From a virus (Duplodnaviria > Heunggongvirae > Uroviricota > Caudoviricetes), in IMG/VR virus record IMGVR_UViG_2529293038_000017, positions 23,342 through 87,341 of that record: a stretch of DNA of 64,000 bases. The stretch is one strand, 5' to 3'. The translations under genes were made by a program, and so were the position numbers. The notes under the pieces are model-generated. The model was not told the origin of the DNA and searched no databases. It was given only the letters and a program-made list of their open reading frames with translations. This document shows positions 37,377 to 38,923 of the stretch, in pieces; position 1 is the first letter of the stretch, and each line of letters starts with the position of its first letter.

Positions 37377-37841
37377 CAGGGTTTTCGTCATGGTTAGCGA
37401 CTTTGCGGCGGTTTAGAAACTGACCATTAAAGTAAATGCAAACGATGATCTGATGATGGTAGCGGCCTAAGAAGCCAGACGCCACGGGGTATGAGTCGTC
37501 CCCCGTCAAAAAATCGACCGCAGAGTGTCCCCGTCTGTGTATTAGGGAACGGGGAGGCACAACAGGTAAGGGCGCTGGTGTGATTAACCAGATGAACGAG
37601 AAGGGGCCATCTGTTGGTCAGCGTCCTTTCCTGTTGCGTCTTCTTTTCAGCGTAACAGCGGTGCTTAACAGCACTTTGGGTACAGTTCCACGAATTTACG
37701 GGTATATCCCGTCATGCTGAAAGCGCTAATCACGCTGGAAGCCAGGGTTATGCATCCCCTGTTACCGAATTGCAGCCAGGGCGCGGTGCGCCGAAAAGCA
37801 TACGGAGGTGGAAGCCCTCGCCGGAGACGTACCCGGCAAGT

Positions 37842-37917
37842 GATGGTGTAGCTCAGCGGTTAGAGCGGTTGACTGTTAATCAACGGGTCGATGGTTCAAA
37901 TCCATCCACCATCGCCA
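37842..37917 (+). tRNA. tRNA-Asn (anticodon GTT)
   Basis: Manual cloverleaf: acceptor GATGGTG/CACCATC, D arm GCTCAGCGGTTAGAGC, anticodon loop CTGTTAA, T arm GATGG-TTCAAAT-CCATC, encoded CCA. Confidence 0.9.
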
Positions 37918-37919
37918 AT

Positions 37920-37995
37920 GCCGGTTTAGCTCAGTTGGTAGAGCGCCTGCCTTGTAAGCAGGATGTCAGCGGTTCGAGTCCGTTAATCGGCACCA
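37920..37995 (+). tRNA. tRNA-Thr (anticodon TGT)
   Basis: Acceptor GCCGGTT/AATCGGC, anticodon loop CTTGTAA, T loop TTCGAGT, CCA encoded; 2 nt after tRNA-Asn. Confidence 0.9.
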
Positions 37996-38923
37996 GCACA
38001 ACAGGTAAGGGTATTTTGCGACGTCGGAGATCGCCGAGCTTGGCAGAGGGTTCGAATCCCTACGAAGTACCCTTACCGTTGTGATGAATGCGCAGGCTGA
38101 TGCGCGAAAGACATTGCAGCTATTGCGGAAAAGAGCTGTTCGGCGGGGCAATTAAACGCCCGTGAGAGTCTGAAATAACCGCAAGCCGGAGATCAGCACC
38201 GGTCATCACAACACAACAGGTAAGGGCATTCTCCCTTATGGGGCTTGGCTTAAATGCATCGAGTGCTCTTACCGTTGTGATGAAGTGCAGCTCTTTGAAG
38301 CAACCAGAAGATAAGCATCTGGCTTCACAACATAAACCGCAGGAACGACCAATAAACGGTAGTCCGTATGGAGAACACCCCGTTGAGGAAGAGGCCTGGC
38401 CGGAACCGTAACCGGCACTACAACGTTGAGAACACTGGCGTAACGGGGTCATATCCCAATCTACGAATAAATGTTGCGTTGCAGCGTGACAACCAGTGTT
38501 CTCAACATTGTGGTGAATGCACAGGCTGATGTGCCGCAACTACAGTAGTGCGCGCTTTGCGGGGCTTGCTACAACCCTGTGTCGGAGTTCAGCACCGACC
38601 ATCACAGTTTGATTCTCTGGCATGAGCATAACGCTGAAATAAGTCCAGCCTGGTGCGGCCCGATCACCCGCCGTTAGCTCCACGAAACGGAGCACGTAAC
38701 AGGTAAGAGCATTCTCCTGTAACGGGTTCATATCCCAATCTACAGGTCCACCAAGAATGCTCTTTCCGTTGCGGTGAATGCGGCTAAGCGCACGCGGGGA
38801 AATGGTTATATCAGTCCATTCATTTCTCCTTGTTTCCCCGTCCACGGTGGATAACCAGCCAAAGGACACCGGGAGGCACCCGGCACCGCAGCTTTTTTAT
38901 TCGTTAAATAATGGAGTGAGAGG

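Follow-up and report, generated by a model that had tools for sequence, protein, structure and literature searches.

What is the role of the DNA that surrounds and follows the two transfer RNA (tRNA) genes in the leader of the ban operon of P1-like phages? We addressed this question in a 64,000-nucleotide (nt) stretch of a Caudoviricetes virus (positions 23,342 to 87,341 of IMG/VR record IMGVR_UViG_2529293038_000017), hereafter referred to as the window, which is a P1-like phage-plasmid region with 98–99% megablast identity to P1-like phages (98.9% to vB_EcoM-813R1, 98.6% to RCS47 and 97.8% to P1). Comparison of the sequences and their predicted folds gives good support to the view that the plus strand here carries a family of structured RNAs under selection and not coding sequence. 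In the leader of the ban operon, 37557–38898 is a non-coding array in which folded-RNA modules of reusable kinds follow one another on the plus strand. We propose that these modules act as punctuation for RNA processing and stability, and our belief in this explanation as a whole is evenly divided. As to its class, the array consists of phage-encoded structured small RNAs of the neighbourhood of STnc100, a prophage small RNA (sRNA), and its long hairpins and three-helix modules are new to Rfam.

An earlier note on this DNA had described at least five repeat units of a single family beside tRNA-Asn and tRNA-Thr, both of which were confirmed by ARAGORN and Rfam. All five units (U1–U5, Table 1) are present on the plus strand, each as a long imperfect hairpin, and 0 of 200 shuffled sequences folded equally well (z values in Table 1). 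The 5′ motif ACAMCAGGTAAGRG assigned to the units gave four matches in the interval and five in the window compared to 0.8 expected, a count of five being reached by 0 of 100 shuffles. The 3′ motif CCGTTGYGRTGAAKGC also gave four clustered matches in the interval. The supposed end motif GTGRTGAAKGC does not mark the hairpin end; it is actually the start of a separate three-helix module, which we call B, as judged from a 98%-identical 137-nt stretch (the B-long1 module) that is shared with lambdoid and Klebsiella phages. U1 lacks the 3′ GTGRTGAA junction. Similarly, the tRNA-3′-end-like ATCAGCACC that was thought to precede the units is the loop and 3′ stem of a B-module hairpin. A repeat finder recovered direct and inverted repeat families in the array, and in place of one family we found at least three alternating module types, one of which is related to the known sRNA STnc100.

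B modules follow the pattern GUGRUGAAU ... AGAUNAGC loop ... CRYCAC and are built from a closing helix (GUGAUGA...UCAUCAC), a first hairpin, an optional insert and a second hairpin, which bears the conserved loop AGAUNAGCA and lies immediately next to the 3′ strand of the closing helix. Minimal forms of 55–57 nt are common, and an alignment of distinct minimal copies (n = 24) was used to build covariance model R1, to which B-long2 matched weakly because of its insert. When the predicted pairs were tested in these 24 copies, 82.5% of the cells were paired versus 76.4% in shuffles, and 23 cells carried a double change versus 6.7 in shuffles, the observed value being attained in 0 of 500 shuffles; controls with slid positions gave 30–54% pairing. 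RNAalifold independently recovered the two B hairpins. All three helices covary: the closing helix reads GUGGUGA/UCACCAC in mEp460, the first hairpin of long B modules changes across loci (GCACA/UGUGC, GCCCA/UGGGC, GGCGG/CCGCC) around a constant GGCUGA loop, and the second hairpin appears as CCGG/CCGG, UCGG/CCGA and CUGG/CCAG.

The long hairpins fall into two types, type I (U1–U3) and type II (U4 and U5). By scanning IMG/VR for hairpin-B junctions, 118 stretches were obtained, which together with phage loci gave 57 distinct type I hairpins. All of these share a base of about 19 base pairs (CACAAC(A)GGUAAGRGCAYUG / CAGUGCUCUUWCCGUUGUG) in which an A is bulged and a U-U or G-A mismatch is frequent, whereas the tops are mutually unrelated and hypervariable (20–140 nt). 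Compensatory variants of the base were found (GGGAGUUCCCCUC/GAGGGGAACUUCC and CCGAAGCGCAUUCC/GGAGUGCGCUUCG), and cognate arms paired with a mean of −19.5 kcal/mol compared to −13.9 kcal/mol for non-cognate arms. In addition, 48 of 60 hairpins were more stable on the given strand than as the reverse complement (Wilcoxon p = 6e-7), all five units of the window among them (for instance, −39.3 versus −32.9 kcal/mol for U1), which is what selection at the RNA level with G-U pairs predicts. The same top may also sit on different stems. That of U3 is carried by three complementary stems that differ between P1-like phages, Klebsiella phage 5 LV-2017 and Shigella phage Sf16, and phage phiMAM1 has, after the same upstream module as in the window (a tag-coding module described below), a hairpin with a different stem and a top similar to that of U1. 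The top of U2 holds the T-arm-like sequence GGGUUCGAAUCCC (T-arm-like GGGTTCGAATCCC).

For type II hairpins, the earlier note had pointed to a loop module common to U4 and U5 on entirely different, self-complementary stems. This was confirmed by the repeat finder (38440–38464 and 38719–38743, 25 nt, 96% identity) and extends to lambdoid homologues: when eight of these were aligned with the type II hairpins, RNAalifold predicted 33 pairs, 10 of which show compensatory changes. Small hairpins equivalent to that at 38399–38416 precede the long hairpin at many loci, and the one that abuts U5 is also found upstream of a U3-type hairpin in locus L005. In the homologous intervals of relatives no conserved intact open reading frame (ORF) was found, and the stems carry compensatory substitutions; the proposed selection on RNA structure in a non-coding plus strand was thus upheld by compensatory changes, the strand asymmetry in stability, co-orientation with tRNAs and the lack of a conserved ORF.

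The last module of the array is, judging from its sequence and predicted helices, homologous to the 5′ domain of STnc100 (EcOnc04/05), an Hfq-bound prophage sRNA. The Rfam model RF02076 aligned to 38771–38898 over model positions 31–147 (37.8 bits, E 1.2e-5), a score below the gathering score of 47. The closing helix, the GGUGAAU junction and the terminal hairpin CCGGGAGGCACCCGG abutting the 3′ strand are all present, and CACCGGGAGGCACCCGGCACC is identical at 38867–38887. On the other hand, the STnc100 3′ domain, consisting of a single-stranded region and its own terminator hairpin (model positions 148–206), is absent from the window copy, which passes directly from the closing helix to GC and six U; P1 lacks the U-run at that place. 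The consensus of STnc100 has the same design as the B modules, a (G)GUGAAU...CACC closing helix with the GGUGAAU junction around internal hairpins, the last of which abuts the 3′ strand, but its model covers none of the other B modules or hairpins of the array. The locations are also alike, since STnc100 copies lie in phage 'moron' regions beside tRNAs and TciA/TerB-like genes.

In E. coli O157 Sakai, EcOnc04 and EcOnc05 are abundant RNAs that crosslink to Hfq and measure about 222 nt by Northern blotting, and EcOnc06 is about 177 nt by the same method (PMC4104026). The sequences of EcOnc04 and EcOnc05 match the STnc100 consensus, and EcOnc06 appears to be related to it, as judged from its Northern probe. 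In Sakai, EcOnc05 directly follows ileZ-argN-argO and EcOnc04 follows a TciA/TerB-like gene. The STnc100 copies that correspond to EcOnc05 and EcOnc04 of Tree et al. 2014 are at L133 (Sakai Sp4) 480–640 and L134 (Sp11) 700–860, respectively, and RefSeq has no non-coding RNA annotation at either place. STnc100 has further been linked with PasD of enteropathogenic E. coli (EPEC), a proposed relative (10.64898/2026.05.13.724894), and Hfq binding and trans-acting base pairing have been reported for the Sakai and EPEC homologues (PMC4104026; 10.64898/2026.05.13.724894). The shared design together with the Sakai matches places the P1 array among phage 'moron-site' RNAs, although most modules of the array are undescribed. 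Apart from the sub-threshold STnc100 match, Rfam 15 gave no family for the hairpins or B modules at permissive thresholds in the window and 18 related loci; matches to microRNA-precursor models in these scans were dismissed as generic noise of long hairpins. A full-text literature search with the motif strings returned nothing relevant.

Table 1. Features of the array and its surroundings in the window (coordinates in the window; z, folding compared to shuffled sequences)
Feature	Position	Strand	Description or basis
P1ban/P2ban promoters and divalent C1 operator	37145–37190	+	positions carried over from the P1 record (L001 1487–1532)
'dicF-like region' of the P1 record	37285–37386	+	ends in intrinsic terminator hairpin and T7 (37347–37376)
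Tag-coding module like that of transfer-messenger RNA (tmRNA)	37379–37555	+	5′ GGGUUUUCG...; unannotated, just upstream of U1
Tag frame	37438–37470	+	GCA AAC GAU GAU CUG AUG AUG GUA GCG GCC UAA = ANDDLMMVAA*, 10 codons
Tag-module hairpins	37483–37506; 37528–37555	+	first covarying; second
U1, type I long hairpin	37557–37640	+	base CACAACAGGUAAGGGCGCUG / CAGCGUCCUUUCCUGUUGCG; no following B module; z −4.58
tRNA-Asn (GUU)	37842–37917	+	ARAGORN, Rfam
tRNA-Thr (UGU)	37920–37995	+	ARAGORN, Rfam
U2, type I hairpin	37997–38083	+	begins 1 nt past tRNA-Thr CCA; fold, models, relatives; z −4.85
B-long1	38081–38212	+	closing helix GUGAUGA/UCAUCAC; hairpin GCGCA-GGCUGA-UGCGC; ~75-nt insert; hairpin CCGG-AGAUCAGCA-CCGG
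ORF equivalent to P1 'plp'	38120–38539	−	139 amino acids, TTG start; judged non-gene
U3, type I hairpin	38212–38279	+	conserved top CCCUUAUGGGGCUUGGCUUAAAUGCA; z −4.59
B-short	38277–38331	+	minimal 55-nt three-helix B; model R1 76.9 bits, E 1e-19
Small hairpin	38399–38416	+	GCCGG-AACCGUAA-CCGGC; abuts U4 5′ strand; read from sequence
U4, type II	38416–38515	+	three-way junction, one arm with internal-loop motif AC-GGG-NUCAUNN-CCC-AAUC; z −5.64
B-long2	38510–38605	+	GUGGUG...CCAUCAC; hairpin GCACA-GGCUGA-UGUGC; hairpin UCGG-AGUUCAGCA-CCGA
ORF containing P1 'upl'	38540–38869	−	109 amino acids; judged non-gene; overlies U5 and STnc100-like module
Small hairpin	38677–38693	+	GCUCC-ACGAAAC-GGAGC; abuts U5; sequence
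U5, type II hairpin	38695–38773	+	internal-loop motif as in U4, no second arm; z −5.14
STnc100-like terminal module	38771–38898	+	closing helix UGCGGUG/CACCGCA; 3′ hairpin CACCGGGAGGCACCCGGCACC; then GC and U6

The modules are widespread, being found also in lambdoid, P22-like, Ackermannviridae, Ounavirinae and Sashavirus phages. A tRNA lies within 800 nt of 21 of the 80 non-redundant hairpin-B junctions, on the same strand in 21 of 21, and 58 of the 80 are followed by a terminator-like site with a T-run, usually 80–120 nt downstream. Lambdoid prophages have the modules in the unannotated gap that follows the repressor gene or Q, and virulent phages have them within tRNA clusters. Units in lambdoid-like contigs often have their own promoter and terminator, by which hairpin-B-seed-terminator units look like independent sRNA genes, and at several loci a good sigma-70 promoter, together with a palindromic operator, lies about 95 nt ahead of the hairpin. 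At L099, L076 and L021 the −35 and −10 elements of the promoter at this distance flank the perfect palindrome ATGTACCCTAAGGGTACAT, which suggests control by a dedicated repressor. At L016 2289–2454 and similar IMG/VR loci, the hairpin-B unit runs on into a seed, AUUGCUGUGUAGUCUUUG, and a terminator; this seed is closely similar to the conserved 3′ region of the core sRNA RprA (Rfam RprA model, 27.3 bits, sub-threshold), and these seed-bearing units of lambdoid-like viral contigs may be prophage mimics of RprA.

The 137-nt B-long1 module was found in 845 of 5426 complete E. coli genomes with 98–100% identity, at 715 chromosomal and 236 plasmid places, and it is at least 95% identical in all but 5 of the 889 matching E. 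coli records. In lambdoid prophages it lies on the repressor strand, in the gap downstream of the repressor gene, and none of the 40 matches listed carried a RefSeq feature on it.

Whole units were gained or lost among P1, P7, D6, Ro157c2YLVW, RCS47 and pJN2-26. B-long1 and U3 act as a single repeat unit, and P1 lacks a 196-bp block in repeat register that is equivalent to this pair (window 38072–38267; L001 2413/2414); since the length of the block equals the spacing of the direct repeat CTTACCGTTGTGATGAA, units are probably gained and lost by recombination between hairpin arms. P7 and D6 have tRNA-Ser(UGA) and a hairpin in place of B-long2, U5 and the STnc100-like module of the window (L137 2291–2490 and L135 2307–2506, respectively, with the hairpin following the tRNA at once), and Ro157c2YLVW has an additional tRNA-Tyr (L136 1565–1651). 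In the P7 record the tRNA-Ser is left unannotated, and the D6 record puts its three tRNAs on the strand opposite to that called by ARAGORN. The long hairpin starts 0–2 nt after tRNA-Thr in the window, after tRNA-Asn in the pJN2-26 group and after tRNA-Ser in P7, D6 and pJN2-26.

How might such an array work? Phage tRNA precursors and the C4 RNA of P1/P7 are processed by RNase III or RNase P. Transcription from the C1-controlled ban promoter of P1-like phages would cover the array together with tRNA-Asn and tRNA-Thr. The bulged stems of about 20–30 base pairs that begin 0–2 nt past a tRNA 3′ end resemble RNase III-type substrates, and cutting there would free the tRNAs and the neighbouring RNAs. 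The B modules, in which a closing helix of 6–7 base pairs and an abutting hairpin recall the stack of acceptor stem and T-arm in a tRNA, might be recognized or protected like tRNAs, and as compact, nuclease-resistant, tRNA-like bodies they could persist either in the form of small stable RNAs or by serving base-pairing sRNAs as 5′ domains. Punctuation of a polycistronic tRNA/sRNA precursor appears to us the most economical reading and is our best guess, and a part for RNase III or RNase P is suggested purely by analogy.

Several observations weigh against this reading. A strong terminator (37347–37376) sits between the ban promoter and the array, so that transcription of the array requires read-through or an unrecognized promoter, and a preprint on the P1vir transcriptome does not mention the interval. 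The long B modules, taken as isolated sequences, folded no better than shuffles (z +0.55 and −0.07). When arms were swapped among type I hairpins, the own arm was the best partner in just 8 of 50; the test discriminates weakly and the covariation is modest because the base is conserved in sequence too, a conservation that could stem from a sequence-specific protein or RNA partner or from recent horizontal spread.

Some known systems resemble the array in part. In the tyrT operon of E. coli, the structured non-coding rtT repeats lie just after a tRNA gene, are co-transcribed with it and are freed by processing of the tRNA operon. Both rtT RNA (RF00391) and the array are repeated structured units immediately downstream of a tRNA gene; however, rtT consists of tandem copies of one sequence, whereas the array alternates three module types that are shared between phages, and the rtT model gave zero matches at E≤10 in 36500–43000. 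The tRNA cluster of phage T4 also encodes species 1 and 2, stable tRNA-like RNAs of unknown function whose maturation depends on the host nucleases for tRNA processing. These T4 RNAs end in a tRNA-like CCA while B modules end in AAC/ACA, and no homology between them was seen, none having been tested for. The stalks cut by RNase III (16S/23S stems, T7 early mRNA hairpins) are likewise long bulged helices of about two turns that flank a looped-out cargo RNA and form part of a polycistronic stable-RNA precursor; the sequence of the putative stalks of the array is itself conserved across phages, that of the ribosomal RNA stalks is not. AgvB and AsxR, anti-sRNAs of lambdoid prophages, have in common with the array the genomic niche, the CACAACA motif and, in family members, sRNA-like terminators, but they are RNAs of 51–60 nt with a single-stranded 5′ variable region, whereas the motif is base-paired in the array, and their Rfam models matched neither the window nor the related loci. 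The Y RNA-like YrlA of bacteria is similar in its long bulged stem made from distant strands and its T-arm-containing top (cf. U2); the sole match of its model (RF02553) spans two real tRNAs with 25.6 bits against a gathering score of 69. A paper on svsR/co293 concerns a different element, and a K-12 homologue with experimental data was not found: the e14 region has no space for the array and C0293 is unrelated.

Could the interval be explained without functional RNA modules? The earlier note had named decayed tRNA duplications as the main alternative, and indeed T-arm-like hairpins occur in the tops (GGGUUCGAAUCCC in U2, CUGGUUCAAUUCCAG and GUCCGUUCGAUUCGGAC in L007/L008), the B closing helix with its abutting hairpin is tRNA-like, genuine tRNAs (Ser, Tyr) occupy the equivalent slots in relatives, and weak unit-level matches to the tRNA-Sec (14.6 bits) and mascRNA (14.9 bits) models exist, although these are at the level of noise. 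Decay may fit the origin of some hairpin tops. It does not explain an architecture that covaries and is kept across phage families otherwise sharing little, with strand-specific stability, with own promoters and terminators in some members and with the near-identity of the 137-nt module in E. coli records; besides, ARAGORN and the Rfam tRNA model (RF00005) found no cloverleaf in U1–U5 or the B modules and called only Asn and Thr, apart from a distant tRNA-Met(CAU). That the units are neutral, functionless remnants of tRNA genes therefore seems to us quite improbable. We give a similarly low rating to DNA-level repeats, either miniature inverted-repeat elements or attC-like sites, that would swap cassettes such as tRNAs and sRNAs with RNA folding being incidental. 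Its main support is the turnover of whole units between direct repeats, seen in the 196-bp block absent from P1 and in the tRNA-Ser and hairpin that stand for three modules in P7 and D6; conserved inverted arms around hypervariable inserts of 20–140 nt, the near-identical 137-nt module in unrelated phages and arms that end AAC...GTT like the cores of integron attC sites point the same way. The rating is low because of the strand and covariation evidence: orientation agrees with the tRNAs in 21 of 21 cases, the given strand gains stability over its complement from G-U pairs, and three internal B helices covary. Moreover, the arms (CACAAC / GTTGTGR) deviate from the attC consensus (R″ RYYYAAC, R′ GTTRRRY) by having T where R is required, and target-site duplications were not noticed. 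No integrase is annotated in the stretches around the modules, where no systematic search was made, and neither an integrase nor a transposase is their consistent neighbour. An identity as attC sites or miniature inverted-repeat elements proper was rejected on the grounds of the orientation, the G-U asymmetry and the core-site mismatch.

Two further explanations concern what the sequence might specify. The conserved CA-rich and GU-rich strands of the array could base-pair with the host sRNA GcvB or its targets, CACAACA acting as a sponge as in AgvB or GUUGUGAUG as a mimic of GcvB R1, and the hairpins being storage or presentation forms. CACAACA is the target consensus of GcvB R1 and the mode of action of the prophage anti-sRNA AgvB (PMC4104026). 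The 3′ arm CUUACCGUUGUGAUG is identical to GcvB CUUACGGUUGUGAUG at 14 of 15 positions, and many family members run on into a single-stranded seed and terminator like Hfq sRNAs, some being RprA-like. However, both motifs are paired with each other in the predicted hairpins, the array's plus strand did not stand out in a scan of the whole window for duplexes with GcvB R1, the P1 copies resemble GcvB more closely than does the family consensus CUCUYUCCGUUGUGGUGAAUUGC, the Rfam AgvB model has no match in the window, and the 15-mer match was found post hoc among about 100 sRNAs and is not significant; we consider this explanation unlikely. The claim of the earlier note that the interval holds no ORF is true for the plus strand, but long minus-strand ORFs are present, although they are not conserved as genes. 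The P1 and RCS47 records annotate two of them, plp and upl, and stop-free minus-strand stretches of 125–147 amino acids occur in all five P1-like relatives examined, so the repeats might be coding sequence for Plp and Upl. Yet plp has a TTG start, no evident Shine-Dalgarno sequence and its 'lipobox' at residues 4–7, and the P1 ORF overlaps trnT. Pfam gave no match for plp and none above cut-off for upl, and neither the Prokaryotic Genome Annotation Pipeline (PGAP), in a P1-like plasmid, nor the P7 record has any annotation between trnT and the next gene. The plp frame is stopped at codon 7 in P7 and D6 and interrupted by a stop and a 161-bp insertion in Ro157c2YLVW, the 196-bp indel, not being a multiple of three, alters its C-terminus, and compensatory double substitutions suit RNA pairing rather than codons. 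By these comparisons plp and upl look like spurious annotations over RNA structures, and a coding role is hardly credible.

The most surprising element of the locus lies outside the array, just upstream of U1. This tag-coding module looks like a phage derivative of tmRNA that lacks the tRNA half. Its frame is preceded by UAAAU and followed by covarying hairpins, and it starts with a GCA resume codon and ends in a hydrophobic -AA degron as tmRNA tags do. By blastn the module was found in 333 phage records, 60 of them at ≥80% coverage, from Punavirus, Ackermannviridae, Schitoviridae, Drexlerviridae and others, and in the phages inspected it shares the strand of the tRNAs and is located within their regions or close to them. 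Homologous tags are always 10 codons long, with AND(D/N) at the start and hydrophobic residues and A at the end; within tag types variation is synonymous only (ANDDVVLMAA in five nucleotide versions, ANDDLMLMAA in four), and an AUG frame overlapping the tag is not conserved among homologues. The Rfam model tmRNA_permuted (RF04321) aligned to the tag region only, with 24.1 bits in the window and 19–33 in five other phages against a gathering score of 47. No tRNA-like domain (acceptor stem with G3:U70, T-arm, 3′ ACCA) was found in cis in seven phages by ARAGORN, Rfam or eye, and a literature search found no description of the module. In Klebsiella phage KP8 (L140 ~877–990), an unannotated tRNA-like sequence of about 115 nt with an acceptor stem UACUGGU/ACCAGUA, a GGUUCGAAUCC T-arm and an encoded ACCA is located just downstream of the tag module. 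It is conceivable that the ban leader of P1 and the tRNA islands of hundreds of enterobacterial phages carry an RNA toolkit directed at host translation rescue, in which the tag RNA would cooperate with B modules, hairpins or host tmRNA/SmpB as a split tmRNA, or as a decoy reprogramming or blocking trans-translation, and the array would be part of this machinery and not mere punctuation; we think it doubtful that this is so.

Regarding the surroundings, dmt ends at 37166 in the window, and in the P1 record dmt is directly followed by the C1-controlled promoters and operator of ban, and then by the 'dicF-like region', trnA, trnT, minus-strand plp and upl, and tciABC-trnI-ban. Positions were transferred from P1 with an offset of +35658 anchored on tRNA-Asn, with no upstream indels larger than 5 bp; a simple promoter scan of the window did not call the P1ban/P2ban promoter region, and the Rfam DicF model gave zero matches at E≤10 to the 'dicF-like region'. 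The tci genes that the earlier note placed in the trnT-trnI interval do exist in P1, but they lie downstream and do not take the place of the array; in the window they are exchanged, downstream of the array, for other DNA including an IS21-type istB. Directly after the array there is a small hydrophobic ORF of 62 amino acids with a GGAG-type ribosome-binding site (38924–39112, plus strand), and beyond it the IS21-family istB-like gene (39163–39945, minus strand) is at the place of tciABC in P1.

P1 is a reference phage, and two of its annotated genes, plp and upl, appear to be artefacts over conserved RNA structures, the leader of its ban operon being an RNA island. The hairpin and B modules are common across several phage families and yet absent from Rfam and from PGAP output. 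Their definitions would improve the annotation of phages and prophages, account for 'empty' gaps beside phage tRNAs, cI and Q genes, and give an evolutionary context to the Hfq-bound prophage sRNAs STnc100/EcOnc04–06 and PasD. The tag module poses the separate question of phage interference with trans-translation, and the array raises that of how phages mature and stabilize co-transcribed tRNAs and sRNAs.

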